Shown: piece by piece, positions 10,362 through 27,531 of the stretch
How positions within the stretch are numbered: position 1 is the first letter of the stretch
Layout: each line of letters starts with the position of its first letter
DNA from: an uncultured Pelagibacteraceae bacterium
GTDB taxonomy: Bacteria > Pseudomonadota > Alphaproteobacteria > Pelagibacterales > Pelagibacteraceae
DNA: 64,000 nt
Reading direction: 5' to 3'
Assembly (NCBI GenBank): GCA_902588255.1
Contig: CACIOK010000002.1
Span: 6,258 to 70,257 of the forward strand
Notes under the pieces: generated by a model
What the model saw: the letters and a program-made list of their open reading frames with translations, nothing else
Database searches by the model: none
Told to the model about the DNA's origin: nothing
Translations under genes and position numbers: made by a program

Positions 10362-13048
10362 CCGGTATTCTTCATCGCCGCAGATATACCTGCTATCGAT
10401 GTCATCATTGCATCATTAAGATATTTCTTATCATTAGATTTGAATTTTTTCTTTAATAATTTATTCATAACTACGGCTTGCAATATATTTAAAACTTCGG
10501 AATAAATGTCTCTAACTAGGACTGTTGTTCTAAATTTTTTTCTTTGATTTATTATTTCCTGTGGAGTTATGTATCTATTTAATTTTTTAATCATGCTAAA
10601 CTCTGATCTAAGTTTCTCTCCTACTTCTATTAATTTTTTATCAGCAAGAGCGTTTTCATAAACTTCTGATATCTCTGGGTCAACTTTTGAAATAACCATA
10701 TCTAAAATATCCATTGTAGAATTGAAAAATGGCCAATTTTTTTCCATATCAGTGAGAGTAGTTTTATGTTTTTTTACTGAAGAATATTTTAAGGCATCGC
10801 CAGTTCCCAACCAAGCTGGTAACATTAATCTTATTTGCGTCCATGCAAATACCCAAGGTATTGCTCTTAAGCTTTGGATGTTATCTACATTTTTTCTTTT
10901 AGAGGGTCGTGATCCTATTGATAATTTTCCAAGAGCTAAGTGAGGTGTAACAGTTTTAAAATATCTTATAAAATCTGAGTTCTCGTTTATATTTTTTCTA
11001 TAAGCTAAAGTAGAAATTTTTGTCATTTTTTCTATTAATTTTCTCCAACTATCTTTAGGTTGTGGTGGTGGGTTTAGAGTAGCCTCCATTATAGATCCTA
11101 TGTAACTACATAAATTATATTTTGCTAGAGGTTCGTAACCATATTTTTGTTGTATCATTTCTCCCTGGTCAGTAATTCTAATACGACCATATACCGAATT
11201 TGGAGGTTGAGATCTCATCGTTGCTTGAATTGGTCCACCACCCCTTCCAGCTGAACCTCCTCTGCCATGAAAAAAAGTAAGATTAATTTTATATTTTTTT
11301 GCGATAGTTAAAACTTCTTCTTGAAGCTTATATTGATGCCAGCTAGCAGATAATTTTCCAGCATCTTTGCTAGAGTCTGAATAACCAATCATAATTTCTT
11401 GATTGTTTTTGATTAATTTTCTGTACCACTTTAATGAAAAAAGTTTTTCCATAATAGATTTTGCATTTTTTAAATCCTGCAAAGTTTCAAAAAGTGGAAC
11501 TACTCGTAATTTATTTTTAATATTTGCCTGCATTTGCATTAAATAAACTGCTAAGACATCTGAAGCTGCTGAAGTCATTGATATTACATAAGCACCCAAA
11601 CATTCTGATGGCTCATCAGCTAAAATCTTAAAAGTTGACCAAACTTCTTTATTTTCTTTATTTTTAAAATTAAAATTTTTGAAAATTTTTTTATTTTTCT
11701 TCATTTCATTTACTAAATATTTAATTTTTTTATTCTCATCCCAATTTAAATAATTAGATTTATTTTTTTTCTTTACATATTCTGCTAATAATTGTGAATG
11801 CCTTGATGACTCTTGTCTTATATCCAATTTTGCTAAATTTATACCAAAGCATTTAGCTCGTCTCATTAAATCGAGCAACTCACCGCTTGCAATATTTTCA
11901 CTTTGGTTTTTCTCTAATGACTCTCTTACAACTCTTAAAGGTTTTAAAATTTCCTCTTTAGAAGATAAAAGTTTTTTTTGATCTAGTGGTTTTTTTGCTA
12001 CTAAATGTCTTTCTATTAATCTATGCGTCTTTCTCATTTCATCTCTTAATGGTCTTAAATAAACTCTATAAGGTTCAAAAGTTTTTCCGGTAGTTTTAAG
12101 AATTTTTTTTGAACATTTTTCCATTGAAAGTCCTCTAATTAATTTTGTTAATTCTTTCTCGTAAAGTTTTGCTGCTTCCCACCTTGATAAAAGTATTACT
12201 TCTTTAGTAATGGCTGCTGTTACATTTGGGTTGCCGTCTCTATCTCCTCCCATCCAAGATCCAAATTCAATTGGATTAAAATTTTTAGGTAAACCTCTTC
12301 CCATATGTTTTACGAAAATAGCATTTAATCTCCTATAAACTTTTGGAATCGTTTCCCAAAGACTATCTTCAATTACTGCTAATCCCCATCTTGCTTCCTC
12401 AGCTGGAGTAGGTTTAAATCTTTTTAAATCGTCAGTATTCCAAATAATTGTAAACTCATCATAAAGTTTTTTATCCAAAATTTTTAAACGCGATTGTTTA
12501 TCCTTCAGAAGATCTCTTTGATCCATTATCTCAGTTATTTTATGGTATTTTTGTATTAAAGTTCTTCTTTTAACTTCAGTTGGATGAGCTGTAAGAACTA
12601 TCCCGATATGAAGATTTTTTGCAATATTATAAATTTTTTGAGGTTTAATTTTTTTGTTTTTAAAAAAATTTTCGAAAATTTCTTCAATGAAAATATTCTT
12701 ATGTTTGTCTTTCAGGCCAGAATTTTCAAATTCATCTAATTTTCTAGAGGCATCTATAGATTCACTAAGATTAATAAAATTCATAAAATGAGTAAATGCT
12801 CTTGCTAATTTAAATATTTTGATTGGTTTAAGTCTTTGAATTTCTGAAGTAATTTTATTAAATCTATTTTTATTATTTTTATTTTTAATGTTTGCTTTTG
12901 ATAGCAATCTTATTCTCTCTACTAAATTAAAAAAACTTTCTCCCTCCTGTTTTTTTATTACTCTACCTAAAATATTTCCCAAGTATCGAACGTCATCTCT
13001 CAAAGATTTTGTGGGTATTCTTTCGTAATAGAGGTCTCTTTTTAGCAT
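10358..13048 (-). CDS. ppc: Phosphoenolpyruvate carboxylase
   Basis: Catalytic motifs VLTAHPTE, GSWMGGDRDGNP, IMIGYSDSSKDAG, FHGRGGSAGRGG, LRAIPWVF and C-terminal MKNTG. Confidence 0.97.
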   Translation of the reverse strand: MLKRDLYYERIPTKSLRDDVRYLGNILGRVIKKQEGESFFNLVERIRLLSKANIKNKNNKNRFNKITSEIQRLKPIKIFKLARAFTHFMNFINLSESIDASRKLDEFENSGLKDKHKNIFIEEIFENFFKNKKIKPQKIYNIAKNLHIGIVLTAHPTEVKRRTLIQKYHKITEIMDQRDLLKDKQSRLKILDKKLYDEFTIIWNTDDLKRFKPTPAEEARWGLAVIEDSLWETIPKVYRRLNAIFVKHMGRGLPKNFNPIEFGSWMGGDRDGNPNVTAAITKEVILLSRWEAAKLYEKELTKLIRGLSMEKCSKKILKTTGKTFEPYRVYLRPLRDEMRKTHRLIERHLVAKKPLDQKKLLSSKEEILKPLRVVRESLEKNQSENIASGELLDLMRRAKCFGINLAKLDIRQESSRHSQLLAEYVKKKNKSNYLNWDENKKIKYLVNEMKKNKKIFKNFNFKNKENKEVWSTFKILADEPSECLGAYVISMTSAASDVLAVYLMQMQANIKNKLRVVPLFETLQDLKNAKSIMEKLFSLKWYRKLIKNNQEIMIGYSDSSKDAGKLSASWHQYKLQEEVLTIAKKYKINLTFFHGRGGSAGRGGGPIQATMRSQPPNSVYGRIRITDQGEMIQQKYGYEPLAKYNLCSYIGSIMEATLNPPPQPKDSWRKLIEKMTKISTLAYRKNINENSDFIRYFKTVTPHLALGKLSIGSRPSKRKNVDNIQSLRAIPWVFAWTQIRLMLPAWLGTGDALKYSSVKKHKTTLTDMEKNWPFFNSTMDILDMVISKVDPEISEVYENALADKKLIEVGEKLRSEFSMIKKLNRYITPQEIINQRKKFRTTVLVRDIYSEVLNILQAVVMNKLLKKKFKSNDKKYLNDAMMTSIAGISAAMKNTG

Positions 13049-13120
13049 TTGGTATAAACTATTAATCTAAGATAATTATACTATACAATAATCTTTATGG
13101 TTAACTATTTGCTTTATATT

Positions 13121-14011
13121 TTAATTTTTACTATTTAAAGCTGATTTTACAGTTTCTCCCATTACTGAAGGGTTTTGTGAAATAGTAACTCCACATTCTT
13201 TTAAGAGTTCAACTTTTTCTACTGCGCTTTCTCCGTAGGCTGACACGATCGCTCCAGCATGTCCCATTACTCTACCCTTTGGGGCTGTTAATCCCGCTAT
13301 ATAAGCTATAACTGGTTTTTTCATATTTTCTTTAGCAAACTTTCCTGCTGCTACTTCTTGTGGTCCACCTATTTCTCCGATCATTAAAACTGCTTCCGTT
13401 TCATTGTCTTCTTCAAATTTTTCTAAAATATCTTTAAAAGAACTTCCATTAATAGGATCTCCTCCTATTCCTACACTTGTAGAGACTCCAATGTTTAAGT
13501 TTTTTAATTGTTGAGCAGCTTCATAACCAAGCGTACCTGATCTACCTATAATTCCTACTTTGCCTTCTTTGTATATATGGCCTGGCATTATACCTAACAT
13601 TGCTTTTCCAGGACTAATTATTCCAGCACAATTTGGACCAACAAGAGTCATTTTTTCTGTTCTAGAATATCTCCTCATATAACGTTTAATTTTAATCATG
13701 TCGTGTGATGGGATTCCATCAACAATTGCTACACACGTCTTAATCCCGGCATCAGCTGCTTCCATTGCGGAGTCTGCTGCAAAAGCAGGTGGAACAAATA
13801 AAATTGAAGCTGTTGCACCCGTACTTTTTACTGCTTCTTTAACAGTATTAAACACTGGTAAGTTTAAATGTTTCAATCCACCTTTTCCAGGTGTAACTCC
13901 CCCTACTACATTCGATCCATATTTTATCATTTCTTCGGCATGAAAAGATCCCATTTTTCCAGTAAAACCTTGAATAATAATTTTTGTTTTTTTATCTATT
14001 AAGACTGACAT
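13121..14011 (-). CDS. mtkB: Malate--CoA ligase (malate thiokinase) alpha subunit, SucD-like
   Basis: SucD fold (phospho-His MGHAGA) with MtkB-type KRYMRRY...GPNCAGIISPGKAMLGIMPGHIY and SGTLGYEA; operon with mcl. Confidence 0.85.
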   Translation of the reverse strand: MSVLIDKKTKIIIQGFTGKMGSFHAEEMIKYGSNVVGGVTPGKGGLKHLNLPVFNTVKEAVKSTGATASILFVPPAFAADSAMEAADAGIKTCVAIVDGIPSHDMIKIKRYMRRYSRTEKMTLVGPNCAGIISPGKAMLGIMPGHIYKEGKVGIIGRSGTLGYEAAQQLKNLNIGVSTSVGIGGDPINGSSFKDILEKFEEDNETEAVLMIGEIGGPQEVAAGKFAKENMKKPVIAYIAGLTAPKGRVMGHAGAIVSAYGESAVEKVELLKECGVTISQNPSVMGETVKSALNSKN

Positions 14012-14013
14012 TT

Positions 14014-15177
14014 TTATTTTCCTAAAGCTTTAACTGCTTTGTTAGCAGCATCCTCTAAAGTGTTGGCTTCTATATAGTTAATTTTACTTTCTTTTAAAAT
14101 TTTATTTCCTTTATCAACGTTTGTTCCAGCTAATCTAATCACCAGAGGAACTTTGATGTCTATTTTTTGTAATGCTTGAACTATTCCCTCTGCAACCCAA
14201 TCACATCTATTAATTCCTGCAAAAATATTAACTAGTATAACCTTAACTTTTTTATCCATTGATATTAATTTAAATGCTTTGACTATTTTTTCGGGGGTTG
14301 CCCCACCACCTACGTCTAAAAAGTTAGCTGGTTCTCCTCCAGCCAATTTAATCATGTCCATAGATGCCATAGCTAAGCCTGCACCATTAATTATATTTCC
14401 AATATTTCCGTCTAAACTTACATAGTTAAGACCCCTGTCTGATGCATAAACTTCATTGCTATTTTCTTGTGTTTTATCTCTTAACTCTGAAACTTGATTT
14501 CTTCTAAATAAGGCATTGTTATCAAAGCTCATTTTACAATCTAATGCAAGTATTTGATCTTGATTTGAAATAACTAATGGATTTACTTCTACCATGGTAG
14601 CATCTAATTCGCTGAATGCTCTGTAACATCCAATAATTGTTTCTGCCGCTCTTGCTATTAGTTTTGGCTCAATTTTTAATCCAAAGGCGATTTCTCTTGC
14701 TTGAAATTTTTGCATTCCAACAGCAACTTCAATTTTTGATCTTATAATAGTCTCTGGTTTTTTCTTAGAAATTTCTTCAACGCTCATTCCTCCCTCTGTT
14801 GATGCAACTACCATTATACTTTCTGAACTTCGATCAAATACTAGTCCTAGATATAACTCTTTTTTAATTTCTGTTGCTTCTTCTATGTAAACTCTATTTG
14901 TAATTTTTCCTTCTGGACCTGTTTGATTTGTGACTAATTTTTTACCAAGAAGTTTATCTGCTGCTTGAGCTACTTCTAGAGCGCTATTACAAACAATTAT
15001 TCCACCTGCTTTTCCTCTGGCTCCAGAATGAATTTGTGCTTTAACAACCCATTTAGATCCACCAAGTTCTCTAGCTTTATTTTCTGCATTCTCTGGACTG
15101 TAGACAATTCCACCTCTTGGAATTGTAACTCCAAATCCTGAAAGTATTTTTTTTGCTTGATACTCGTGAATATCCAT
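14014..15177 (-). CDS. mtkA: Malate--CoA ligase (malate thiokinase) beta subunit, SucC-like
   Basis: MDIHEYQAK, KAQIHSGARGKAGG, NGAGLAM and VNIFAGINRCDW (MtkA type; SucC normally reads NIFGGIVRCD/IMRCD). Confidence 0.87.
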   Translation of the reverse strand: MDIHEYQAKKILSGFGVTIPRGGIVYSPENAENKARELGGSKWVVKAQIHSGARGKAGGIIVCNSALEVAQAADKLLGKKLVTNQTGPEGKITNRVYIEEATEIKKELYLGLVFDRSSESIMVVASTEGGMSVEEISKKKPETIIRSKIEVAVGMQKFQAREIAFGLKIEPKLIARAAETIIGCYRAFSELDATMVEVNPLVISNQDQILALDCKMSFDNNALFRRNQVSELRDKTQENSNEVYASDRGLNYVSLDGNIGNIINGAGLAMASMDMIKLAGGEPANFLDVGGGATPEKIVKAFKLISMDKKVKVILVNIFAGINRCDWVAEGIVQALQKIDIKVPLVIRLAGTNVDKGNKILKESKINYIEANTLEDAANKAVKALGK

Positions 15178-15178
15178 T

Positions 15179-16117
15179 TTATTTATTTTGAATAAGTTTA
15201 TCTATATTTACAATATTTTCTGCCATACGTGCAGATGCTGCATCAATCATCCTTCCATCTAGTTGTGCAGCTCCTTTTCCTTCTTTTGCAGCTTTATCTA
15301 GTTCTTCAAGAATTCTTTTAGCTTTATTTACTTCAGATTCTGGTGGAGAAAAAACTTTATTTGCTAAATCAATTTGAGATGGATGTATTGCCCATTTGCC
15401 TTCAATCCCAATTGCAGCTGCTCTTTTTGCTGATGCTATATATGCATTGCTATCATTAAAATCTCCAAATGGTCCGTCGATCGCTCTTAAGCCGTAAGCT
15501 CTACATGTCATAACCAGTTTAGACAAACCGTGGTGCCATTGATCGCCGGGATAATCAGGATTTAATCCTCCTATCACTACTGTTCTTGCTCTTAAACTTG
15601 CAGCATAGTCTGCCACGCCAAAATGCAGAGCTTCTAATCTACTACTAGATTTTGCAATATCTTTTATATTCGACATTCCTAAAGCTGTTTCAATTAAACA
15701 TTCAATTCCTATTTTATTTTTTATTTTTTTATTAGCTTCAATTTGTGTTAACAAACAATCAACCATGTAAACATCACTGGCTGTACCTGCTTTTGGTACC
15801 AATATTGTATCTACTTTGTCGCCTGCCTCCTCTACAATTTCTACCAAATCTCGATACATATAATGAGTATCCAAACTATTAATTCTTACAGAAATAGTTT
15901 TTCCTTTCTCTTTCCAATTAATTTCTTTGAGTGCCTTAATAACATTTTGACGTGCAGGAATTTTATCGTTTGGGGAAACAGCATCTTCAAGATCTAAAAA
16001 AATATAGTCAGAATTTGAATTTAATGCTTTTTCAAACATTTTAGGTGATGACCCTGGCACTGCTAATTCACTTCTCTGCAACCTAGACTTTGCTGGTTTA
16101 TAAAATTTATGGCTCAT
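15179..16117 (-). CDS. mcl: L-malyl-CoA/beta-methylmalyl-CoA lyase
   Basis: RLQRSELAVPGS, FLDLEDAV, DTHYMYRD, LHFGVADYAAS, DGPFGDF, EGKWAIHPSQI, LDGRMIDAAS: Mcl clade of the CitE superfamily. Confidence 0.9.
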   Translation of the reverse strand: MSHKFYKPAKSRLQRSELAVPGSSPKMFEKALNSNSDYIFLDLEDAVSPNDKIPARQNVIKALKEINWKEKGKTISVRINSLDTHYMYRDLVEIVEEAGDKVDTILVPKAGTASDVYMVDCLLTQIEANKKIKNKIGIECLIETALGMSNIKDIAKSSSRLEALHFGVADYAASLRARTVVIGGLNPDYPGDQWHHGLSKLVMTCRAYGLRAIDGPFGDFNDSNAYIASAKRAAAIGIEGKWAIHPSQIDLANKVFSPPESEVNKAKRILEELDKAAKEGKGAAQLDGRMIDAASARMAENIVNIDKLIQNK

Positions 16118-16255: not shown

Positions 16256-17584
16256 ATGTCAAATTTGCCAACTAAAGCTAAAGTAGTTATTATTGGTGGT
16301 GGAATTCACGGTCTAAGCACAGCTTGGAAATTATCTGAAACATATAAAAATCCTGGTGAAATTGTAGTCTTAGAAAAAAAAGATACTGCTGCTGGAGCAA
16401 GTGGAATAGCTTGTGGAGTTGTAAGAAACAATTATTTTCAACCCGCAATGAGAGAATTAATGGCTCATTCAGTAAGTGTTTGGGAAAGTGATCCAAAAGC
16501 TTTTAAATATAATGCCGTAGGATATATGCAAATTTCACCTGAAGTTATGCATAAAGATGTAGCTAGTATTTATGAACAACAAAAAGCTATAGGTTATGAT
16601 TCAGTTTTTATTGAAGGTGAAAAAGACTGCTCAAAGTACATGAAAGGAATTTTTGATGATTGGCAAGCAAAAGGGATTACATCTGTACTTCATGAAAAAA
16701 AAGGTGGATACGCTTTTAATAAAGACTCAATTAAAGCTTTAGAAAGTAAAGCAAACTCAAACGGGGTAAATGTACACAAAGGTGTTAAGGTAACAGGTTT
16801 CAAAAGAGGAAGTAATAGTAATGCAGTTACTGGAGTGGTAACTGATAAAGGTACTATAGAATGTGACCAAGTTGTTGTCGGTGCAGGTCCGTGGGTTAGA
16901 GATTTTTGGAATATGTTAGAACTTCCAAAAACTGCAGAAATTAAAGGACAAGATGGAAAAACACATGAAGTTGATATGTGGAAATATTGGTTTTTACAAG
17001 AAGGCGTTTTGGGAGTAGAAGCTGACTACTTAAGAACTAATGATGGTAAGCAACCGCCAGTGATTCATGTAGATACTGATGCTCCTTTATATTCAGATAA
17101 AGATAAGAAATTAATTACTGATAAATTGTGGGGTATATACTACAAACCTGATATTGAGGGTTTGGGTGTACAAGGTGGTACCTCACCCTATATAGTTCAA
17201 AAACATTTTGATAAAGTAAATGTTGATCCTTACGGTTTAGAGTCGCCGGAGTATCAAACAACAAACGAGTTTGCTGACATGTGGTCATCTGCTTTAGCTC
17301 ATTGTCAAAAAAGATTTGAAGGTAAATCTAATTTATACAGAAAAGGTCCGTCGGGTGGACTTGGATGTTTAACGCCAGATTCATTTCCAATTTTTGATAG
17401 ATTTTTTGAAAATGTATACATGATAGCAGACGCAAATCATGGTTACAAAATGATTGGTGTTGGACACTTGGTTGCGCAAGAAATTTTAGGTCAAGAAAGT
17501 AACTTATTAAAACCGTTTAGATTCAATCGATACGCGAAAGGGGAACTTCACCCCACTTCGAACAGTCCATTTCCTTGGAGTTAG
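16256..17584 (+). CDS. FAD-dependent amine oxidoreductase (DAO / sarcosine-oxidase-beta / MgdA-like)
   Basis: VIIGGGIHG, GASGIACGVVRNNY, VVVGAGPW, TPDSFPI, HGYKMIG; first gene of the N-methylglutamate run. Confidence 0.8.
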   Translation: MSNLPTKAKVVIIGGGIHGLSTAWKLSETYKNPGEIVVLEKKDTAAGASGIACGVVRNNYFQPAMRELMAHSVSVWESDPKAFKYNAVGYMQISPEVMHKDVASIYEQQKAIGYDSVFIEGEKDCSKYMKGIFDDWQAKGITSVLHEKKGGYAFNKDSIKALESKANSNGVNVHKGVKVTGFKRGSNSNAVTGVVTDKGTIECDQVVVGAGPWVRDFWNMLELPKTAEIKGQDGKTHEVDMWKYWFLQEGVLGVEADYLRTNDGKQPPVIHVDTDAPLYSDKDKKLITDKLWGIYYKPDIEGLGVQGGTSPYIVQKHFDKVNVDPYGLESPEYQTTNEFADMWSSALAHCQKRFEGKSNLYRKGPSGGLGCLTPDSFPIFDRFFENVYMIADANHGYKMIGVGHLVAQEILGQESNLLKPFRFNRYAKGELHPTSNSPFPWS

Positions 17585-17652: not shown

Positions 17653-19122
17653 ATGACAGATCTAGAAAAACATGTAAACCAACCAGGAAGAGATAAGCTA
17701 GTAAAAAAAGTTAGAGAAAAAATTAACGAATTAGGAATTACATACATTTATTATCAATTTATATCTGTAACTGGACGTGTTGTTGGTAAAGGAATTCCCG
17801 CAGACCATTGGGAAAGAACGGCGGAAAAAGGTTTTCAATTAGTTTATGGATCTACAGCAAACTTATTTGTAGACAGACACAAAAATTATATTGGTTACGG
17901 TCCTGAAGCTATGGAACTTGTTGGTATACCTGACCCGGAAACTTTCTGTCAATTACCGTGGGACAAAAGAATTGGAAGAGTTTTTGTAACTTGTTTTAGA
18001 AATAGAGAAGAAAGACAAAATCCAGGTGGTCATTTAACTTCTGATTGCAGAGGTAATTTGAAAATTTTTATGGATGAATTCCAGAAGAAACATGGTTTAG
18101 AATTAAGAGTTGGAACGGAACCTGAAATGATGTGGTTGACAAAAAATGCTGATGGAACTCCTACTGGAGAAGGTTTTTCTAAACCATATTGTTATCACAT
18201 TGATCAATTTGAGTCATTGAGACCTGTGTTTATGAAGGTAATTGAATACGCTTCTGCGATGGGTTTAGATATGATCCAGGGTGACCATGAAGATGCTCCA
18301 GGACAATTAGAATTAAACTGGACTTACGATAACGTTTTAAGAAACGCTGATAGACTTTCTACTTACAGACAAATTTGTGCTCAAGTAGCAAGAGAACATA
18401 ATTTAATAGCATGCTTTATGACTAAACCGTTTATGGGTGTGTCTGCAAGTGGTTGTCACACAAATATGTCCTTATGGAAAGGTGGAAAAGTTGTAACAAA
18501 CAAATTAGGTAATAAAAAATTACCCGGAGTTGAGGAAGTTTTTGGTTATGTTCAGGGAGGTACAAATACTTTTATGCCTGATACTAAAGATATGCAAATG
18601 CCAGGTAAAGTTGGTTTGCAGTCCATTGCTGGAATAATGGAACACTTGCCTGCTTTAACAGCTTTAGGATCTTCAACTGTCAATTCTTACAGAAGACTTT
18701 GGGATCAGGGTTTTTGGGCTCCAGTTTATGCTGATTGGGGATATCAAAACAGAACTTGTGGTTTAAGAGTTTCTGCTCCAGGAAGATTTGAGTATAGATC
18801 TGTAGACTCTATGCACAACCCATATCTGTTGGGCGCAGCATTATTAAAAGCTTGTGACCACGGTATTTCAAAAAATCTAAAACCATCAAAACCTGAGTCT
18901 AGAAGTATGTATGAGGCTAAAAAGGCTGGTAAAGATGTTAAGAAACTTCCATTAAGTCTAGGTGAAGCTTTAGATAGATTAGCAGAGGATGAGGTTATTA
19001 AATCTGCAATGCCAGACGAAATGTATAAAGTTTTCCATTGGTACAAAAATGATGAATGGGAAAAATTCTTAGGTGCTACCACGCAATGGGATCTTGATAC
19101 ATATTTAGATTGTTTACCATAA
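17653..19122 (+). CDS. Glutamine-synthetase-like gamma-glutamyl:amine ligase (not the canonical GmaS)
   Basis: GTEPE, HEDAPGQLE, FMTKP, NSYRRL, QNRT, FEYRSVD, NPYL present; ammonium-site motifs altered (VYGST for FDGSS; GFWAP for GYEAP). GAGGG RBS. Confidence 0.8.
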   Translation: MTDLEKHVNQPGRDKLVKKVREKINELGITYIYYQFISVTGRVVGKGIPADHWERTAEKGFQLVYGSTANLFVDRHKNYIGYGPEAMELVGIPDPETFCQLPWDKRIGRVFVTCFRNREERQNPGGHLTSDCRGNLKIFMDEFQKKHGLELRVGTEPEMMWLTKNADGTPTGEGFSKPYCYHIDQFESLRPVFMKVIEYASAMGLDMIQGDHEDAPGQLELNWTYDNVLRNADRLSTYRQICAQVAREHNLIACFMTKPFMGVSASGCHTNMSLWKGGKVVTNKLGNKKLPGVEEVFGYVQGGTNTFMPDTKDMQMPGKVGLQSIAGIMEHLPALTALGSSTVNSYRRLWDQGFWAPVYADWGYQNRTCGLRVSAPGRFEYRSVDSMHNPYLLGAALLKACDHGISKNLKPSKPESRSMYEAKKAGKDVKKLPLSLGEALDRLAEDEVIKSAMPDEMYKVFHWYKNDEWEKFLGATTQWDLDTYLDCLP

Positions 19123-19139: not shown

Positions 19140-20081
19140 ATGTGTGGAATAGCAGGGTTAATTCATAGAGGAAAAACTTCAAACGTAGGCAAAGAACTAC
19201 AAGATATGCTTCAGGCTTTAAAACATAGAGGACCTGACTCTACAGGATATGCGCTTTACGCGAATAATGATGGCCAAAATTTTATAATGAGATTTAAAGT
19301 TGGTGAAAATGTTGGAGAAGGTAGCACTTCAGTAAATGAAGATGAAAGTGTTTACGATGAAAGAAAAAAGCTTGTAAATCAAAAACTTTCAGACTTAGGA
19401 GCATCAATTGTTAAAGAAGAAAAGTTAACCCCATATTCTTATAGATATGAAATTAAATTCGATAAAGATTTAATGGATTTTTCAAAAGCGATTGAAAGTA
19501 TTGAGAGTGTTGAAATACTTTCTATTGGAAAATCTCTTGAGCTTATAAAAGATCTTGGAGATGCTACAGCTGTTTCAGAAAGATACGGATTAAGTAAAGT
19601 ACAAGGTACGCACGGTATTGGACATGCAAGAATGGCAACTGAGTCCGGTGTAGACATTAAGTCTGCTCACCCCTTTTGGGGTTATCCTTTTGCCGACGTT
19701 TCAGTAGTTCATAATGGTCAATTAACAAATTATTGGAATAATAGAAGGGTGCTTGAAAATAAAGGTATGCGTTTTATGTCAGAGTGCGACTCTGAACTAA
19801 TTGCAGTGTTCCTTGCTGAAAAAATGAGAAATGGAGCAACATTAGAAGAAGGAATGAAACAGTCTCTTACAGGACTTGATGGTGTTTTTACTTATTTTGT
19901 AGCAACAAAAGACTCATTAGGAATGGCAAAAGATACAATGGCTGCAAAACCATTAGTACTATACGAGTCTGATGATTTGGTAGCAATGGGGTCTGAAGAA
20001 ATAGCAATTAGATCTATTCTTCCACAAGAAATTGATACTTATGATCCATTTGATGGGGAGGTTAAAGTATGGCAAATTTAA
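19140..20081 (+). CDS. mgsA: N-methylglutamate synthase subunit A (class II amidotransferase, GlxB)
   Basis: True start MCGIAG at 19140 (N-terminal Cys nucleophile), HRGPDSTG, GHARMATES, AHPF, VHNGQLTN, DSE. Confidence 0.85.
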   Translation: MCGIAGLIHRGKTSNVGKELQDMLQALKHRGPDSTGYALYANNDGQNFIMRFKVGENVGEGSTSVNEDESVYDERKKLVNQKLSDLGASIVKEEKLTPYSYRYEIKFDKDLMDFSKAIESIESVEILSIGKSLELIKDLGDATAVSERYGLSKVQGTHGIGHARMATESGVDIKSAHPFWGYPFADVSVVHNGQLTNYWNNRRVLENKGMRFMSECDSELIAVFLAEKMRNGATLEEGMKQSLTGLDGVFTYFVATKDSLGMAKDTMAAKPLVLYESDDLVAMGSEEIAIRSILPQEIDTYDPFDGEVKVWQI

Positions 20082-20923
20082 AACCTGATACAAAAAAAAC
20101 TAAAGCTCAGTCAATGGGTATGCACACTGAAGTGCTTACTGGAAAAACTCAGCAAAAATTTTTTAATCCTGACGAAGCAGAAAATTTCTTTTATTGGGGA
20201 ACTTATGATGTTGATTTTAATAAAAGAACTGAATTAGATGTTAAGGATATGGATTGTAAACTTGCAAATGAAAAAATAGATCGACTTATGAGTGAAGGTT
20301 ATGGAACAATTGTAATTAAAAACCCCCAAGGAAAACATAGTTTAGGTGTTGGAATACTAAATAAACTTAATTTAATTTTTGAAGGAAGCTTGGGATATTT
20401 TGGTGTTGGATCAATTGATGGACCGATAGTAACAGTTAAAGGACGTGTCGGCTGGTCTTGTGCTGAAAATATGATGGCTGGAAAAGTTGTTATAGAAAAA
20501 AATGCAGGATCATGTTTTGGTGCGGCTATTAGAGGAGGAGATTTAATTTGTAAAGGAAGTGTAGGAGCAAGAACTGGAATTGACCAAAAAGGTGGTTCTA
20601 TAATTGTTGGTGGAGATGCAGGTGCATTTACAGGTTTTATGATGCAAAGAGGTAGAATAGTTATTTTAGGGGATGTAGGAATTAACCTTGGAGACTCTAT
20701 GTATGATGGAACTATATATGTGGGAGGAAAAATTGGTTCATTCGGTAGTGATGCGGTAGAAGCCCCCATGACAAAAAATGATATAGAATGGTTAACTAGA
20801 AAACTTAAAGTAGCTGAAATTGGTAGTAATATTGACTTATCAAAAATGACTAAAATTGTTTCTGGTAAAAAACTTTGGAACTACGACGCTTTAGAACCAA
20901 CAGAGAAAAAAGGAGCTATATAA
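20069..20923 (+). CDS. mgsB: N-methylglutamate synthase subunit B (GXGXG beta-helix, GlxC)
   Basis: Repeated G-rich beta-helix motifs (AENMMAGKV, GARTGIDQKGG, GFMMQRG, LGDSMYDG) and C-terminal SGKKLWNY. Confidence 0.85.
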   Translation: MANLKPDTKKTKAQSMGMHTEVLTGKTQQKFFNPDEAENFFYWGTYDVDFNKRTELDVKDMDCKLANEKIDRLMSEGYGTIVIKNPQGKHSLGVGILNKLNLIFEGSLGYFGVGSIDGPIVTVKGRVGWSCAENMMAGKVVIEKNAGSCFGAAIRGGDLICKGSVGARTGIDQKGGSIIVGGDAGAFTGFMMQRGRIVILGDVGINLGDSMYDGTIYVGGKIGSFGSDAVEAPMTKNDIEWLTRKLKVAEIGSNIDLSKMTKIVSGKKLWNYDALEPTEKKGAI

Positions 20924-22311
20924 TGGCAAAGAAGAAAAATGGAAAAGCTAACGGTCACTCAAACGGTAAAAGTGATTTTGCAAAACGAAATAAAAGTTTA
21001 CTAGGTTATAATGCAATTTTTACTCCTGAGGTTATTGACGATATTCATATTAAAGCTCAGTTAGGAAGATACAGAATGCGTGGAATGGCATTGATGAAAA
21101 AAATTCCAACATTTGACGATTTGGTATTCTTGCCTGGAACTTTAACAAGATTTGTAATTGAAGGTTATAGAGAAAAGTGTGAAACAAAAACTGTAATAGG
21201 CCCAAGATGTGAAAATCCAATAGAATTAGATATTCCTGTTTATATAACTGGTATGAGTTTTGGAGCTCTTTCGTATGAAGCAAAAACTGCTCTAGCAAGA
21301 GGTGCTACAATGGCAGGATCGGCTACATGTTCAGGAGAAGGTGGTATGATACCTGATGAAAGAAGATATTCTGAAAAATGGTATTATCAATGTATTCAAT
21401 CAAGATATGGATTTAACCCTCACCACGCACAACTTGCAGATGGAATAGAAGTATTTATTGGACAAGGACAAAAAGTTGGTATGGGTGGTCACCTAATGGG
21501 TCAAAAAGTAACTGATCAAGTAGCAGAAATGAGATCATTACCAGCTGGTATCGATCAAAGATCACCTGCAAGACACCCTGACTGGTTAGGACCAGATGAT
21601 TTAGCATTAAAAGTTCAAGAGCTTAGAGAGCTAACTAAAAATAAAGTGCCAATTCAATTAAAACTTGGTGCAGCAAAAGTTTATGACGATGTTCGTATGG
21701 CTGCTAAGTGTGATCCAGACTCTATTTATTTAGATGGAATGGAAGGATCAACTGGTGCAGGACCACACATTGCAGCTGCTAATACAGGAATACCTGGAAT
21801 AGCTGCAATTAGAGAAGCAAGAAGAGCTATTGATGATGTAGGTAAAACTGGAAAAGTAACACTTATATATGCCGGAGGTGTAAGAGATGGTGCTGACATG
21901 GCAAAGGCTTTAGCTTTAGGTGCTGATGCAATAGCAATTGGAACTGGAGCTATGATAGCTCTTAACTGCAATAAAGAAATTCCAGAGTCAAATTTTGAAA
22001 AAGAAATGGGTGTTCCTGCTGGTCATTGTTATCACTGTCACACAGGTCGTTGTCCTGTTGGTGTTGCAACTCAAGATCCAAAACTTAGAAAAAGATTAAA
22101 TCCTGATGAAGCTGCTTTAAGAGTTTATAATTATTTACATACAATGACTTTGGAAGCTCAATTATTAGCAAGAGCATGTGGTAAAACAAATATTCATTCT
22201 TTAGAGCCAGAAGATATGGCTGCATTAACTATGGAAGCTTCTGCATTAGCAAAAGTTCCATTATCAGGCACAAATCATACAGTAGGAGTTGATGATTTCC
22301 ATAAAATTTAG
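20923..22311 (+). CDS. mgsC: N-methylglutamate synthase subunit C (FMN glutamate-synthase domain, GlxD)
   Basis: GMSFGALS, SGEGGM, GQGQKVGMGGHL, DQRSPARHPDWLGPDDL, Fe-S motif CYHCHTGRCPVGVATQDP. Start at 20923 via TAATG overlap. Confidence 0.88.
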   Translation: MAKKKNGKANGHSNGKSDFAKRNKSLLGYNAIFTPEVIDDIHIKAQLGRYRMRGMALMKKIPTFDDLVFLPGTLTRFVIEGYREKCETKTVIGPRCENPIELDIPVYITGMSFGALSYEAKTALARGATMAGSATCSGEGGMIPDERRYSEKWYYQCIQSRYGFNPHHAQLADGIEVFIGQGQKVGMGGHLMGQKVTDQVAEMRSLPAGIDQRSPARHPDWLGPDDLALKVQELRELTKNKVPIQLKLGAAKVYDDVRMAAKCDPDSIYLDGMEGSTGAGPHIAAANTGIPGIAAIREARRAIDDVGKTGKVTLIYAGGVRDGADMAKALALGADAIAIGTGAMIALNCNKEIPESNFEKEMGVPAGHCYHCHTGRCPVGVATQDPKLRKRLNPDEAALRVYNYLHTMTLEAQLLARACGKTNIHSLEPEDMAALTMEASALAKVPLSGTNHTVGVDDFHKI

Positions 22312-22319
22312 AGATACAT

Positions 22320-22724
22320 ATGGCAAAAAAAAAGAAAAATAAAAAGATCAAAGTAGCCAAAGGCCAACTAGGAAAAAAGAAAGAAACAGCAAGAGAAAAA
22401 ATGATTGGTCAAACTATCGGTTATAGATACGATGTAAACTTATTACCTGATTACAAAAAACTTACACCATTTTTAAAAAAATATATTGAGCATATGGGTT
22501 GGGATGATCTTAATTGGTTAGAAGATGTTCATATGGGATATGAAGAAGATAGACCAGCTGTTTTTGATAGAAATGCTAATGGTTGGGTAACAATTCCAAA
22601 AAAAATTAAATTACCTGATAATCAACAAGATAGGGATATGATCGCTCGAGAGCTACTGGTTAAGTTCCAAATGTCTCCAAACCATCCATTGGTTGATCTT
22701 AAAAAAGCTTATTTAAAATTCTAA
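22320..22724 (+). CDS. Hypothetical soluble protein co-transcribed with mgsABC
   Basis: 134 aa, 8 nt after the mgsC stop; Lys-rich N-terminus then a W/D/E-rich globular part. Confidence 0.7.
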   Translation: MAKKKKNKKIKVAKGQLGKKKETAREKMIGQTIGYRYDVNLLPDYKKLTPFLKKYIEHMGWDDLNWLEDVHMGYEEDRPAVFDRNANGWVTIPKKIKLPDNQQDRDMIARELLVKFQMSPNHPLVDLKKAYLKF

Positions 22725-22745: not shown

Positions 22746-23510
22746 TTGAATATAATCACTTCATTTCCAAAATCCGGGAATACCTGGATGCGTTTTATAA
22801 TTTATGAACTACTTTATAATAACAAAAATGAAGAAAATAATAATTCCTTAAATATTAAAAATAAGGTTCCAGATTTACATCTATTACTAAAAATTAAAAA
22901 TAATCAATTTGTATTCGATACAGAAAAAATTGATGATTATGCTAATATTTATTTAAAAACACACTTTGGTTATAACCAAATAAAAAATTTTCCTTTAGAA
23001 AAAGTAATTATTATAATTAGAAATCCTTTAGATGTTTTTGTTTCTTTGATCAATTATTATGATATTAGCAAAGATAAGATCGATGATTTAGTTGATTTTT
23101 TTTGCGTAAACTATACTTTGCCTCGTTTTAAAAATTTTCCAAACTGGTATGAACATTTAGATGGTTGGGTAAATTCTAATTTGAAATTTGGTCTATTCAA
23201 ATATTCTGATCTTCTATATGATTTTGAAAATCAAATAATAAAATTAGGTAATTTTTTAAATATTAAAATTGATAATACAAAAATTCAAATAGTAAAAAAA
23301 AATACATCCTTTGAAAAATTAAAAAAAATTGAAATTTTTGAAAGAAACAAAAAATTAAATAGCTTCTTTAATAATGATGCTATGGGATTAGTAAAAAATT
23401 CTTTTATGAATGTTGGAAAAAATCATTATTATTCATCAGTATTAAATAAAGATCAGATTGATAAACTTGAAAAATCATTTGGTAAAGCAATTGAAAAATA
23501 TGGATTATAA
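22746..23510 (+). CDS. PAPS-dependent sulfotransferase domain protein
   Basis: 5'-PSB loop TSFPKSGNTW, LKTH, 3'-PB motif IIRNPLDVFVS, KYSDL, TSFEKLK; TTG start; very AT-rich. Confidence 0.8.
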   Translation: MNIITSFPKSGNTWMRFIIYELLYNNKNEENNNSLNIKNKVPDLHLLLKIKNNQFVFDTEKIDDYANIYLKTHFGYNQIKNFPLEKVIIIIRNPLDVFVSLINYYDISKDKIDDLVDFFCVNYTLPRFKNFPNWYEHLDGWVNSNLKFGLFKYSDLLYDFENQIIKLGNFLNIKIDNTKIQIVKKNTSFEKLKKIEIFERNKKLNSFFNNDAMGLVKNSFMNVGKNHYYSSVLNKDQIDKLEKSFGKAIEKYGL

Positions 23511-23664: not shown

Positions 23665-25065
23665 ATGACTGATCAATTAGGCGCTCTCACGACCATATTT
23701 ACAGAATTTTACTACTGGGTGACGGTAGTACTTATGTTTTTAATTCACGTAGGGTTCTGTATGTATGAAGTGGGCGCATCACGTTATAAACATCACCAAC
23801 ATACTTTAATGAAAAATACAATGTTAATACCTCTAGTAACGGTAACATGGTTTTTCTTTGGTTGGTGGATTTACTGGGCATTTCCAACAGGACCAGGACT
23901 AGCACCTTCAATAATGAATGAAAGTGCTGCACTAATAACAGATGAATCAACTTTTAGTGCCAAGTGGTATATGCCTAATAGCCAATTAATGGCTGTTAAT
24001 TTAGGAGATCACATCTCTGGAGTGTTCTGGGCCGCGTTCTTACTATTTTCATGGACAGCTGCATCAATCGTTTCTGGTGCTGTAATTGAAAGAATTACTA
24101 CTTTTGCTTTTGGAATTTTGGCAATAGCAATTGGTTCAGTGTTCTGGACAATCGACGCTGCTTGGGGATGGCACTTTGATGGTTGGATGTTAAAATTATT
24201 AGGATACCACGATGCTTATGCATCGGGAGTAATTCACGCAATTGCAGGAGGATTTGCTCTAGGTATCTTAGCAGTTTTAGGACCAAGAATCGGTAAATTT
24301 TCATCAAGTGGTGAACCAAGAAATATTGGACCAAGAAATCCTTGGCTTGTTACAGTTGGATTATTTTTAATTTATACTGGGTTCTGGGGATTTTATGCTG
24401 CATGTAATATACCAATATTTGATTTAGGGCCTGAATATGGTATGGAAGGCGTAACTTACTGGACTGCAACAAACATATATGTAACTCCTACTACACTTAG
24501 CGGTATTACTATGAACTTCTTGATGTCTTTATCGGGTGGTTTATTAGCAGGATATATCGTAGCTAAAGGTGATCCTTTCTGGACTTACTCAAGTGGTCTA
24601 GCAGGAATCATATGTGCATCTGCAGGAAATGACTTATATCATCCAATACAATCAATGATCATTGGTATGATCGGTGTTGTTATTGCATACAAACTTCATT
24701 ATTGGGTTGAACGTAAGTTCAAAATTGATGATGCTGTTGGAGCTGTAGCAGTACATGGTTATGCTGGATTTGTAGGTCTAGTAATCTGTGGATTTGTTCT
24801 AAATGGTTATCCATCATCTGGTTATAGTGTTGGAGCTATGTGGGATGGATCAAACTATGCAGCTATCAATCCTTTAGGAATGTTTATAGGTGCATTAATA
24901 ATGTTTGGACTACTTGGTTTCTTACCAGGTTGGATTATCGCTAAAATACTTCATGGAATGGGTAAACTTAGAATTCCAAGAGAAGTAGAGATAGCGGGTC
25001 TAGACTATAATATGTTGGAGGCTGCTAAAAGTGATGAAAAAGCAGTTTCCTCATCAACTAGGTAA
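23665..25065 (+). CDS. amt: Ammonium/methylamine transporter (Amt family, divergent)
   Basis: Many TM helices, SGAVIER, HDAYASGVIH, LGPRIGKF, IDDAVGAVAVHG (twin His), LRIPREVEIAGLD; GGGAGG RBS. Confidence 0.9.
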   Translation: MTDQLGALTTIFTEFYYWVTVVLMFLIHVGFCMYEVGASRYKHHQHTLMKNTMLIPLVTVTWFFFGWWIYWAFPTGPGLAPSIMNESAALITDESTFSAKWYMPNSQLMAVNLGDHISGVFWAAFLLFSWTAASIVSGAVIERITTFAFGILAIAIGSVFWTIDAAWGWHFDGWMLKLLGYHDAYASGVIHAIAGGFALGILAVLGPRIGKFSSSGEPRNIGPRNPWLVTVGLFLIYTGFWGFYAACNIPIFDLGPEYGMEGVTYWTATNIYVTPTTLSGITMNFLMSLSGGLLAGYIVAKGDPFWTYSSGLAGIICASAGNDLYHPIQSMIIGMIGVVIAYKLHYWVERKFKIDDAVGAVAVHGYAGFVGLVICGFVLNGYPSSGYSVGAMWDGSNYAAINPLGMFIGALIMFGLLGFLPGWIIAKILHGMGKLRIPREVEIAGLDYNMLEAAKSDEKAVSSSTR

Positions 25066-25399: not shown

Positions 25400-26044
25400 A
25401 TGGAAAATAAAATTCAATACAGACTTATAAAAAAGTTTGGACCTTCGATATTTCATGTAAAAATTCCTGAAAATATAATTACAAAACTAAACAATTATGT
25501 GGAGGAAACAGTAAAAGATGAAAAAAAGAGTAAAGATTTAGATGTAGGGAAAAACCTTGTTGGAGATGTAACGCAGGAATTTGTACTTGAACATGATTTT
25601 ATAAAAAATTCAGGCTGGTATAATTTTTTAGCATTTTGCGTAAAACAGTGGATAAAATTAGAAACTAACAAAGAGGTTACAAAGTTTGAAGTAAAAAACT
25701 CATGGATTGTCAGACAATTTCAAAATGAATATAATCCTACTCACTGGCATGGGGGACATATTTCTGGTGCAGGCTTTTTAAAAGTTCCAACGAATATGGG
25801 TAAACACTCACAAAAAGGTAAAGAGCTTACTTATAGAGGTGGCAATTTACAGCTGATTCATGGTTCAAGAATGTTTTTGTGTCACTCTACATTAGATTTA
25901 ATTCCTTCTGTTGGTGACTTTTATTTTTTTCCAAACTATTTAATGCATACAGTCTTTCCTTTTAAAGACACAAACGAAGAAAGAAGATCTATTTCCTTTA
26001 ACGCAGTAATTGATGATGAAATATACAATGTCTATGGAAGATAA
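25400..26044 (+). CDS. Putative 2OG-Fe(II) oxygenase (TIGR02466-like)
   Basis: SWIV..NEYNPTHWH..ISGAGFLKVP..GDFYFFPNYLMHTVFPF..ERRSISFN; TATAAT-N6-ATG upstream. Confidence 0.75.
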   Translation: MENKIQYRLIKKFGPSIFHVKIPENIITKLNNYVEETVKDEKKSKDLDVGKNLVGDVTQEFVLEHDFIKNSGWYNFLAFCVKQWIKLETNKEVTKFEVKNSWIVRQFQNEYNPTHWHGGHISGAGFLKVPTNMGKHSQKGKELTYRGGNLQLIHGSRMFLCHSTLDLIPSVGDFYFFPNYLMHTVFPFKDTNEERRSISFNAVIDDEIYNVYGR

Positions 26045-26205: not shown

Positions 26206-27531
26206 ATGCCAAAAAACTTATCATCAATAGCTAAATCCAAAAAAATTAAATACTTCTTAATTAGTTTTGTAGACTTATTTGGTGTTTTAAGATCCAAACT
26301 GGTACCTGCACAAGCAATAGGAGAAATGCAAAAAAATGGAGCTGGATTTGCTGGATTTGCAACATGGCTAGATATGACCCCGGCTGATACGGATATGTTT
26401 GCTATACCTGATCCCGATAGTTTAATTCAATTACCTTGGAATAAAGAAGTAGGTTGGTTAGCATCAGACTTGTGGATGGGCGGCAAACCGGTTAAGGCAT
26501 CGCCGAGAGTAATATTAAAAAACCAAATTGAAAAACTTTCAAAGAAAGATTTAACTATGAAGTCTGGAGTGGAATGTGAATATTTTTTAATCACACAAGA
26601 TGGTTCAAAAATAGCAGATGATAGAGATACTCAATCTAAGCCCTGTTATGATCAATCAGCATTAATGAGAAGATATGATTTAATAAAAGAGATATGTGAT
26701 TGTATGATTGAGCTTGGGTGGAATCCTTATCAAAATGATCATGAGGATGCTAATGGTCAATTTGAAATGAATTGGGATTATTCTGATAGTTTAACTACTG
26801 CGGACAGACACACTTTTTTTAAATTTATGGTTAAGACTATTGCGGAAAAACATGGCTTAAGAGCTACCTTCATGCCAAAACCTTTTGAAAATTTAACTGG
26901 AAATGGATGTCATGCCCATATTTCATTATGGAAGGACAAACAAAATAAATTTTTAGAAAATAGTGATAGACTAGGTTTAAGTAAAACTGCTTATAATTTT
27001 TTAGGTGGAATCATGAAATTAGCACAACCACTTGCAGCGTTTTTTAATCCAACAGTAAATAGCTACAGAAGAATAAACGCTCCTCCAACAAAATCAGGGG
27101 CATCCTGGTCTCCAAGTAGTATTTCTTATTCTGGAAATAATAGAACACACATGATTAGAATACCAGATCCAGGTAGATTTGAGTTACGATTGATGGATGG
27201 ATCTTCAAATCCCTATTTACTTCAAGCGGGTGTGATCGCTGCAGGCTTAGAAGGTCTTAATAATAGGACTGATCCTGGAGAACCACTCAATTGCAATATG
27301 TATACAGATTACAAAAACTATTCACATCTTAAAAAATTACCTGATGAGATTGAAGACTCAATTAAAGAGCTTGAAGATAGTAAAGAGCTAAAAGAAGCTT
27401 TTGGAGAAGATGTAATAAATAGTTACATTAAGCTAAAGAAAGAAGAAATAGATGAATTTAATAGGCAAGAATCATTTAATAAAAAAGACCCTATAACTGA
27501 TTGGGAAAGAAAAAATACCCTTGATTGTTAA
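26206..27531 (+). CDS. gmaS: Gamma-glutamylmethylamide synthetase (GlnT / type III GS)
   Basis: GmaS signatures RSKLVPA..GAGFAGFATWLDMTPA, KPCYDQSALMRRY, YQNDHEDANGQFEMNW, TGNGCHAH, SGASWSP, NNRTHMIR, RFELRLMDG. Confidence 0.9.
   Translation: MPKNLSSIAKSKKIKYFLISFVDLFGVLRSKLVPAQAIGEMQKNGAGFAGFATWLDMTPADTDMFAIPDPDSLIQLPWNKEVGWLASDLWMGGKPVKASPRVILKNQIEKLSKKDLTMKSGVECEYFLITQDGSKIADDRDTQSKPCYDQSALMRRYDLIKEICDCMIELGWNPYQNDHEDANGQFEMNWDYSDSLTTADRHTFFKFMVKTIAEKHGLRATFMPKPFENLTGNGCHAHISLWKDKQNKFLENSDRLGLSKTAYNFLGGIMKLAQPLAAFFNPTVNSYRRINAPPTKSGASWSPSSISYSGNNRTHMIRIPDPGRFELRLMDGSSNPYLLQAGVIAAGLEGLNNRTDPGEPLNCNMYTDYKNYSHLKKLPDEIEDSIKELEDSKELKEAFGEDVINSYIKLKKEEIDEFNRQESFNKKDPITDWERKNTLDC

Follow-up and report, generated by a model that had tools for sequence, protein, structure and literature searches.

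A glutamine synthetase-like ligase cassette as a candidate for the missing dimethylamine step of SAR11 methylamine breakdown

Methylated amines, which are aerosol precursors, make up a large pool of organic nitrogen in the sea. The described systems closest to the locus treated here, a gene cassette from an uncultured Pelagibacteraceae bacterium of the SAR11 type, are the dimethylamine (DMA) monooxygenase DmmDABC, the monomethylamine (MMA) ligase GmaS, the N-methylglutamate (NMG) pathway to which GmaS belongs, and the PuuA-type ligases. Passages of the 2011-2017 literature credit SAR11 with Tmm, Tdm and GmaS and with no DMA monooxygenase; the lack of dmmDABC is stated in part of PMC5520151, and the DMA step is an acknowledged gap in a passage of PMC3870248. 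From this gap came the proposal of a metabolic bottleneck whereby DMA is released to the atmosphere, and a section of Lidbury et al. (2017) has DMA accumulating at this "bottleneck" since many marine bacteria are without Dmm. A dmmDABC deletion mutant of Ruegeria pomeroyi is unable to use DMA nitrogen (Lidbury 2017, restated in PMC8918994). Strain HTCC1062 grows on trimethylamine N-oxide (TMAO) as sole nitrogen source without dmmDABC, and in the part of the 2022 paper that bears on this its authors postulate an unidentified DmmDABC "isoenzyme" (PMC8918994). A DMA-processing enzyme is therefore required.

We have analysed 64,000 nucleotides of this bacterium's DNA (contig CACIOK010000002.1 of assembly GCA_902588255.1, positions 6,258 to 70,257; hereafter the window). 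Downstream of its TMAO demethylase gene lies a gene for a 489-residue ligase of the glutamine synthetase (GS) family, GS489, followed by the genes of a three-subunit enzyme resembling NMG synthase (MgsA', MgsB' and MgsC') and of a small protein, orf134. A FAD oxidoreductase of the DAO family usually precedes this cassette and an Amt-family transporter often follows it. It is hypothesized that the cassette does the job of DmmDABC downstream of TMAO demethylase. We regard it as a strong candidate, and the best available, for the DMA step still missing from the marine breakdown of methylamines, because it exchanges places with dmmDABC, because carriers of Tdm have one system or the other, because SAR11 is without Dmm, and because HTCC1062 grows on TMAO. 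That GS489 glutamylates DMA, as predicted from these sequence comparisons, is given a probability of roughly 0.55.

In the proposed route, GS489 would join DMA to glutamate in an ATP-dependent reaction to give N5,N5-dimethylglutamine. The Cys1 amidotransferase subunit MgsA' would then cleave this amide and channel the amine to the FMN subunit MgsC', which would transfer it to the 2-position of glutamate to form N,N-dimethylglutamate. Finally, DAO and/or N-methylglutamate dehydrogenase would strip the methyl groups, leaving glutamate and one-carbon (C1) units. Such a course of amide capture, channelled transfer and oxidative demethylation is suggested by a ligase being followed by an Ntn amidotransferase that is intact and by a glutamate-synthase domain of the FMN type; the substrate is inferred, as is each reaction. 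We would give even odds to the broader proposal that SAR11 and many other Dmm-less marine bacteria catabolise DMA by a previously unrecognised, ATP-driven and oxygenase-free route from GS489 through MgsA'B'C' (possibly with orf134) to N-methylglutamate and glutamate.

Position and distribution relative to dmmDABC

The exchange is seen in two genomes of one genus, G012 and G585, that belong to an alphaproteobacterial order other than that of SAR11. Both have the gene order PhoD, DAO, a variable slot, amino-acid permease, Tmm, MCP, Tdm and DUF2817, and the flanks are closely alike (DAO 94%, Tmm 91%, permease 82%, Tdm 81% and MCP 81% identical). The slot holds GS489-MgsA'B'C'-orf134 in G012; in G585 it holds DmmD (GcvT-like), DmmA (PF22290/PF22289), DmmB (PF22290 plus Fer2) and DmmC (PF11927). 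G585 is 100% complete, is without GS489 and has the canonical mgs-gmaS set only. The DAO gene kept beside its dmmDABC looks like the remnant of a recent swap.

A functional analogue of Dmm would be expected both in the Dmm slot and in a complementary distribution among Tdm-positive genomes, and alongside the G012/G585 swap such a distribution was found in the order of genome G200 (151 genomes at least 85% complete, from 96 genera). GS489 occurs there in 19 genomes, an orthologue of DmmA in another 19, and none has both. Among the 40 Tdm-positive genomes (E ≤ 1e-100), GS489 is present in 16, DmmA in 17, both in none and neither in 7; in six of those seven the Tdm-like match is merely 38-48% identical. 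Fisher's exact test on the 34 genomes with Tdm at 48% identity or more gave p = 1.5e-8 by genome and p = 3.4e-5 by genus (10, 11, 0 and 1 genera), values to be read with the facts that the 48% line was drawn after the data had been viewed and that the tests are not corrected for kinship. Exclusion alone, over all 151 genomes, is not significant (p = 0.13). Sample loci from this order show Tmm, Tdm and DmmDABC with a transporter in four Dmm genomes, and, in two cassette genomes, Tdm, TmoX and Tmm with GS489, the trio and orf134, Amt and DAO being optional. Two simpler markers were discarded. The Tdm domain PF09347 over-counts, as it also matches a protein of about 290 residues, and was replaced by a full Tdm query; PF11927 also matches a second subfamily in genomes without DmmA, and was replaced by the DmmA of G585.

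In the order of G012 (83 genomes of one family, the unpublished genome G617 included), Tdm was found in 72 genomes, GS489 in 66 (65 orthologues; G554 has only a 53% paralogue) and PF11927 in 6, and Tdm lies 5-10 kb from GS489 in at least 14. Thirteen genomes have Tdm and no GS489; three of them carry Dmm (G585, G611 and G613), and the other ten are 60-91% complete. Among 151 Pelagibacterales genomes, including the unpublished G476, GS489 was found in 101 and PF11927 in none, the same search having matched 51 of the 151 genomes of the G200 order and 6 of the 83 of the G012 order. GS489 and PF09347 are confined to the same Pelagibacterales genera (g1, g217 and g221) and were found in none of the other seven; both sit in one island, so the shared range is not independent evidence.

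The genes for DAO, GS489, MgsA'B'C' and orf134 are conserved in SAR11 and two other alphaproteobacterial orders, and in all three the cassette lies within tmm/tmoX/tdm islands. We compared the window with the 80 best related loci, all of them Pelagibacteraceae, Pelagibacter or SAR11-type records. The full run of DAO, GS489, MgsA'B'C', orf134 and amt is present in 71 of the 80, the others being cut by contig ends, and tdm lies upstream of GS489 in 63 of the 65 SAR11 loci with at least 6 kb of upstream sequence.

A first-pass annotation of the window, made from its letters and open reading frames, had named GS489 as a candidate for the missing DMA step and had held Dmm to be missing. The latter is borne out, PF11927 having no match in the bacterium's own genome (a single-cell or metagenome assembly of 0.9 Mb in 48 contigs, 73% complete) or in the 151 Pelagibacterales genomes. 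An association of the ligase with tdm and with dmm's absence, which it offered as a check, agrees with the 16/17/0/7 division of Tdm-positive genomes in the G200 order (40 in all) and disagrees with three genomes that have both systems and three cassette carriers without Tdm. The candidacy itself gains from the swap, the complementarity and the Dmm-less SAR11; the residue argument on which it was first put forward cannot separate DMA from MMA.

The ligase, its partners and the surrounding island

The GS489 reading frame is open over its full length in a window of about 31% GC. Pfam PF00120 matches it (E = 5.5e-79) in two stretches parted by an insert. Its NCBIfam scores fall below the family cut-offs for GmaS (TIGR03105, 289.7 bits against 469.6), GlnA (TIGR00653, 227.3 against 429.15) and PuuA (NF045547, 214.2 against 650). 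GS489 is thus a GS-fold ligase that is neither GlnA nor canonical GmaS, and it is one of three GS-family genes in its genome, next to a true GlnA (contig C12) and a canonical GmaS. The AlphaFold2 (AF2) model is of high confidence (pLDDT 91.3), and its top fold matches are GS and GmaS chains with TM-scores of about 0.8, which supports the GS fold; GS and GmaS are not separable by such a search. Orthologues 72-79% identical occur across SAR11 and the two other orders, and in proteins source-labelled Arenicellales and SAR324; the protein cluster closest to GS489 has 4125 member sequences.

In a maximum-likelihood tree of 36 sequences, from which the frameshifted P0133 was excluded, the orthologues of GS489 group tightly (99/97) within a clade of uncharacterised ligases (100/100). 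The latter is sister (94/88) to the GmaS clade (100/99), and GS489 falls outside GmaS. GSI and PuuA-like sequences branch outside the GmaS and GS489-type clades, with the PuuA-like ones outside the group of GSI, GmaS and GS489. The nearest non-orthologous relatives (51-53% identity) are on plasmids of Paracoccus (sp. TOH plasmid p2, locus L085) and Ruegeria (sp. SCSIO 43209, locus L086). Near them are genes for a cytochrome P450 and ferredoxin (Ruegeria), aldehyde dehydrogenases (Paracoccus), a second GS-like protein, and type-1 amidotransferases or gamma-glutamyl hydrolases, and by this gene content the loci appear to be organic-amine glutamylation clusters; their layout presumably resembles that of the Ipu and Puu routes. 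As a separate observation, the second GS-like gene in L085 and L086 is very divergent (tree branch length 2.8) and precedes the GS489 relative in each, a two-ligase arrangement.

The motifs that had drawn attention to the reading frame are real. VYGST (64-68), SASGCHTN (264-271) and GFWAP (353-357) are invariant in 11 orthologues, and HMMER alignment to a solved GS of the B. subtilis type pairs them with "mfdgss", "ngsgmhcn" and "gyeap". The claim that metal, ATP and glutamate ligands are kept likewise holds over 34 GS489, GmaS, GSI and PuuA sequences: E156, E158, E213, E220, H269, E380, R348, R372 and R378 are invariant, R367 and R382 are conserved in at least 90%, and all six Mg ligands (E156, E158, E213, E220, H269 and E380) are retained. 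In order to compare the amine site, residues described in part of a paper on RhGmaS (PMC7948447) were placed on GS489 via the window's GmaS and two multi-family alignments. The catalytic Asp177, Glu186 and Arg312 correspond to D211, E220 and R367 and are identical. So are all seven residues of the methylamine pocket (Tyr147, Gln175, Asp177, Glu179, Glu186, Asn188 and Lys30'), which correspond to Y181, Q209, D211, E213, E220, N222 and K46. The same paper describes an apparent activity of RhGmaS even on trimethylamine, an amine unable to form an amide. The flap Glu of GlnA (GYEAP) is replaced by Trp355. Canonical GmaS likewise has the flap Trp and a Cys ahead of the metal His, so the amine site of GS489 is GmaS-like and not unique, and the description of it as very different from that of GmaS does not stand. 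Loss of the two acidic residues of GS, also claimed, is clear at the flap and most likely at the Asp50' position (Ala48' in GmaS), where alignment and modelling would place Tyr65. A 37-sequence MAFFT alignment and the strand-turn pattern of the AF2 secondary structure favour Tyr65. The alignment is not unique here: when 8OOL is the HMMER reference, and by distance from the PD motif, D74 ("LFVDRH") takes this position; D74 is the less likely equivalent, being Asn in the G200 orthologue and disfavoured by the larger alignment and the AF2 model. GS489 further differs from GmaS in a longer loop at residues 70-87, an insert of 25-30 residues after Trp275 that is structured in the AF2 model, the absence of the 5-residue flap insert of GmaS, and Leu219 for Phe and Asn271 for His.

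The first-pass annotation had read the three genes after GS489 as mgsABC. By sequence comparison they are an old, co-evolving paralogous set and not the canonical one: MgsA' is 30-36%, MgsB' 35-36% and MgsC' 50-53% identical to the canonical subunits. Between orders the cassette trio is itself well conserved (A' and B' 58-66%, with MgsA' at 60-61%; C' 74-75%). Some SAR11 loci, G200 and G012 have both trios, the canonical one directly upstream of canonical gmaS. The true start of MgsA' is the ATG at 19140, which gives MCGIAGL and keeps the Ntn nucleophile Cys1. MgsC' is the only FMN glutamate-synthase-domain gene of its type found in the window's genome at its 73% completeness.

DAO adjoins GS489 in SAR11, G200, G012 and G663. 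Its best solved relatives are beta subunits of sarcosine oxidase and N-methyl-amino-acid oxidases; N-methyl- or N,N-dimethyl-glutamate is the candidate substrate for its oxidase activity. Of the 151 genomes of the G200 order, 13 have an orthologue, all 13 GS489-positive and with DAO directly adjoining GS489, and in 0 of the 19 DmmA genomes. Six of the 19 GS489 genomes lack it, so DAO is a frequent but dispensable member, and GS489-MgsA'B'C'-orf134 is the invariant core. All six (G635, G661, G680, G682, G707 and G745) have a match to the second subfamily of PF11927, the haem oxidative N-demethylase alpha-like family, and no DmmA; one of the matches is a fragment with a stop, and such a match occurs in only 1 of the 13 DAO-positive genomes. 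This protein may serve as an alternative means of demethylating what the cassette makes, or its presence may be a lineage effect, as only three genera are concerned.

orf134 is always the last cassette gene and is highly conserved: 10 orthologues, drawn from three orders, have a mean column identity of 82% and are 65-88% identical to the window copy. It has no Pfam family even at E = 10, only "hypothetical" clusters in the ESM Atlas, and a poor AF2 model (pLDDT 63.8). In SAR11, as in G200, G680 and relatives, the Amt gene accompanies the cassette; the window's copy is 68% identical to the G200 and G680-locus copies.

Features of the window discussed in the text (positions in the window)
Feature	Position	Strand	Description
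Tdm	7686..10013	+	TMAO demethylase, DUF1989 and GcvT (Pfam); produces DMA
orf115	10014..10361	+	Directly after tdm; no Pfam family
Serine-cycle-type genes	10358..16117	-	PEP carboxylase, malate--CoA ligase (mtkAB; NF010647, 633 bits, above cut-off), malyl-CoA-lyase-like HpcH
DAO	16256..17584	+	442-residue FAD oxidoreductase, SoxB-like N-terminal half; Pfam DAO
GS489	17653..19122	+	GS-fold gamma-glutamyl:amine ligase, candidate DMA-activating enzyme (Pfam/NCBIfam, alignments, tree, AF2)
MgsA'	19140..20081	+	Class II (Ntn) glutamine amidotransferase subunit
MgsB'	20069..20923	+	GXGXG subunit; Pfam PF01493
MgsC'	20875..22311	+	FMN glutamate-synthase-domain subunit; PF01645, E = 1.4e-89; start codon uncertain
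orf134	22320..22724	+	Small conserved protein; no known family
Sulfotransferase	22746..23510		Apparent strain-specific insertion
Amt	23665..25065	+	Amt-family transporter; Pfam PF00909
2OG-Fe(II) oxygenase	25400..26044		Apparent strain-specific insertion
GmaS	26206..27531	+	Canonical; TIGR03105, 632.4 bits (cut-off 469.6); RhGmaS 7CQL, E = 2.7e-174
ygeX-like	27537..28664	+	Diaminopropionate ammonia-lyase-like PLP enzyme; NF006058, 404 bits

The gmaS gene further along the window, correctly called canonical at first pass, is here without an mgsABC of its own. Among 66 SAR11 loci showing both amt and gmaS, canonical mgsABC precedes gmaS in only 11 and is missing in 55, which have an amt-gmaS gap of about 470 bp. 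In two of five complete SAR11 genomes, and likewise in the window's own incomplete genome, the cassette trio is the sole NMG-synthase-like enzyme. Because most SAR11 lack a second trio, the cassette trio must also accept the gamma-glutamylmethylamide (GMA) made by GmaS, or GmaS is an orphan.

Several neighbouring genes deserve mention in their own right. Serine-cycle-type genes lie between tdm/orf115 and DAO within the methylamine island; mtk or mcl matches occur in only 6 of the 80 related loci (L006, L007, L064, L079, L081 and L082), and some SAR11 strains may assimilate C1 units, not merely oxidise them. The product of orf115 is 67-96% identical in nearly all SAR11 loci and from its sequence looks like a small winged-helix DNA-binding protein that may regulate the island. 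The sulfotransferase and 2OG-Fe(II) oxygenase genes break the fixed order orf134-amt-gmaS, were matched in only one of the 80 loci (L007), and look like strain-specific insertions. The ygeX-like gene follows gmaS in most SAR11 loci that reach that far and is SAR11_1317 in HTCC1062. At gathering thresholds no Rfam family matches anywhere in the window, and at E ≤ 1 there is only a chance rivX in 22700-26300; no riboswitch of known type accounts for how amt or gmaS is regulated.

Expression, substrate and competing explanations

Tables in PMC3870248 and PMC3160333, as far as they concern this region, list two gene sets for HTCC1062: SAR11_1304 sox, 1305 glnT, 1308 gltB2 and 1310 amt, and SAR11_1313-1315 glxBCD and 1316 glnT. 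SAR11_1305 is equated here with GS489 by synteny only. According to a passage of PMC3870248, the SAR11_1305 and SAR11_1308 proteins are detected in HTCC1062. A section of PMC5069961 has the mRNAs of SAR11_1305 and of the TMAO-binding protein SAR11_1302 both falling about fivefold in sulfur-limited stationary phase, when no more than 15 genes in all, these two included, shift by a factor of four or more. In marine metatranscriptomes, contigs of four runs cover 28-30 of the 30 bins of 16100-25200, and two of them (X1 record 2 and X5 record 19) span the GS489/MgsA' junction; this is only a hint of expression, as a contig in an RNA library is no proof that the DNA was transcribed. Over the sulfotransferase gene the bins have almost no cover, from which no inference is drawn.

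Several observations weigh against DMA as the substrate of GS489. The pocket is identical at 7 of 7 positions to that of an MMA ligase, so that the sequence demands no bulkier amine and a plain MMA ligase would look alike. Most SAR11 depend on the cassette trio to serve GmaS as well, so that it handles an MMA-derived amide. Three genomes of the G200 order (G200, G668 and G747) have the cassette and no Tdm, and in the G012 order GS489 and Dmm occur together in three (G609, G610 and G614). Genomes that share ancestry do not count independently, and the complementarity statistics are overstated to that extent. The second-subfamily PF11927 protein in 6 of the 19 GS489-positive genomes of the G200 order, those without DAO, is itself a possible demethylase. 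Amt proteins carry ammonium and methylammonium, and DMA is not known to be an Amt substrate; by this analogy the linked transporter argues for MMA or ammonium. Lastly, nitrogen limitation does not induce SAR11_1305 or SAR11_1308 and strongly induces DAO (SAR11_1304), according to a passage of PMC3870248.

The explanation that survives best beside DMA ligation is that GS489 is a second gamma-glutamylmethylamide synthetase and the cassette a self-contained alternative NMG pathway for MMA, serving for example in scavenging with its own Amt. Complementarity with Dmm would then reflect lineage or habitat, and carriers would leave DMA unused, in keeping with the published bottleneck and with the passage of Lidbury et al. 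(2017) on DMA accumulating for lack of Dmm. The shared pocket residues, flap Trp and Cys-His, the sister position of the GS489 clade to GmaS, the linkage of Amt, the need for the cassette trio to process GMA in SAR11 without a second trio, and the three cassette genomes without Tdm all speak for it. Such a pathway would be redundant in G012, G200, G609 and G625, the non-SAR11 carriers examined, because canonical mgsABC-gmaS is also present there, and redundant with GmaS in streamlined SAR11. It also leaves unexplained the exact positional swap with dmmDABC, the presence of exactly one system in 33 of the 34 genomes with a close Tdm, and the growth of HTCC1062 on TMAO as sole nitrogen source as described in the relevant part of PMC8918994. 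We therefore consider it unlikely, though the one to be taken most seriously.

A distinctly improbable explanation is that the cassette replaces Dmm but that DAO, or the PF11927 protein where DAO is missing, oxidises DMA to MMA and formaldehyde, with GS489 and the trio capturing the MMA. DAO is SoxB-like, it is found in the G200 order solely in GS489-positive genomes (13 of 151, always adjoining), and all six DAO-less GS489 genomes there have the second-subfamily PF11927 protein (one as a fragment with a stop). It is the second most induced protein in nitrogen-limited HTCC1062; in the passage concerned the authors discuss amine demethylase and deaminase functions and leave the DMA pathway open (PMC3870248), and a section of Lidbury et al. 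(2017) raises a possible role of DAO in DMA oxidation. Against these stands G585, which keeps a 94%-identical DAO beside dmmDABC, so that what was displaced is GS489, the trio and orf134 and not DAO. The canonical set would still make a second ligase and trio superfluous, and the second PF11927 subfamily occurs mostly in Tdm-less genomes. Still more improbable is a small organic amine outside the methylamine series (e.g. ethylamine, ethanolamine or an isopropylamine-like compound), which the P450, hydrolase and aldehyde dehydrogenase genes around the 51-53% plasmid relatives would suit, but the orthologue group has its own invariant context in three orders (the NMG-synthase-like trio and tmm/tdm islands) and is complementary to Dmm.

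The reading of GS489 as a DMA ligase accordingly remains the one we prefer, and it makes the cassette a specific and testable candidate for the DMA step in SAR11. If it is true, the oceanic "DMA bottleneck" would largely be an annotation gap, with the cassette as the marker gene set that had been missing; estimates of DMA turnover would have to be revised, and a marker for metagenomes would be gained. Tertiary-amide formation by a GS-like ligase would be a new reaction in the NMG pathway family. A search of the literature on the SAR11_1304-1308 genes, on dimethylglutamine and dimethylglutamate, and on alternatives to Dmm, which did not extend to the supplementary tables of Lidbury 2017 and Smith 2013, turned up no paper that gives the cassette this function. 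The enzyme families are known; the literature searched does not describe the cassette, its putative equivalence to Dmm or the tertiary-amide chemistry proposed here.

Comparison with known systems

GmaS (RhGmaS, 7CQL; TIGR03105) shares with GS489 the GS fold, the Mg, ATP and glutamate ligands, the catalytic residues, the MMA pocket, the flap Trp and the Cys-His, and it too works beside a GATase2/GXGXG/FMN trio. The two are only about 30% identical and form separate clades. GS489 has Tyr65 (most probably, from alignment and model) for Ala48', the longer loop, the 25-30-residue insert and no flap insert; the ligase gene is last in the canonical operon and first in that of GS489.

DmmDABC (Lidbury et al. 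2017) occupies the same tmm-tdm slot as the cassette and is distributed in complement to it, and the two would share the role of removing DMA. They have no homology: Dmm is a haem/Fe-S/flavin oxygenase with a tetrahydrofolate-binding subunit, whereas the cassette encodes an ATP-dependent ligase and an amidotransferase/FMN enzyme whose chemistry would run via glutamate conjugates and bypass free MMA.

The NMG pathway (gmaS, mgsABC and mgdABCD) has the same kinds of component, namely a ligase, an NMG-synthase-like trio and a SoxB-like demethylating flavoprotein. Every cassette component is a distant paralogue of its counterpart there, however, with a single-subunit DAO in the place of MgdABCD and the additional orf134, and both systems coexist in the non-SAR11 carriers examined.

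PuuA and PuuB pair a GS-like ligase with a DAO-family oxidase, which recalls GS489 and DAO. PuuA-type ligases (NF045547) also resemble GS489 in having Trp for the flap Glu and an extended loop after the Asp50' position. Unlike the Puu and Ipu systems, the cassette has no gamma-glutamyl hydrolase.

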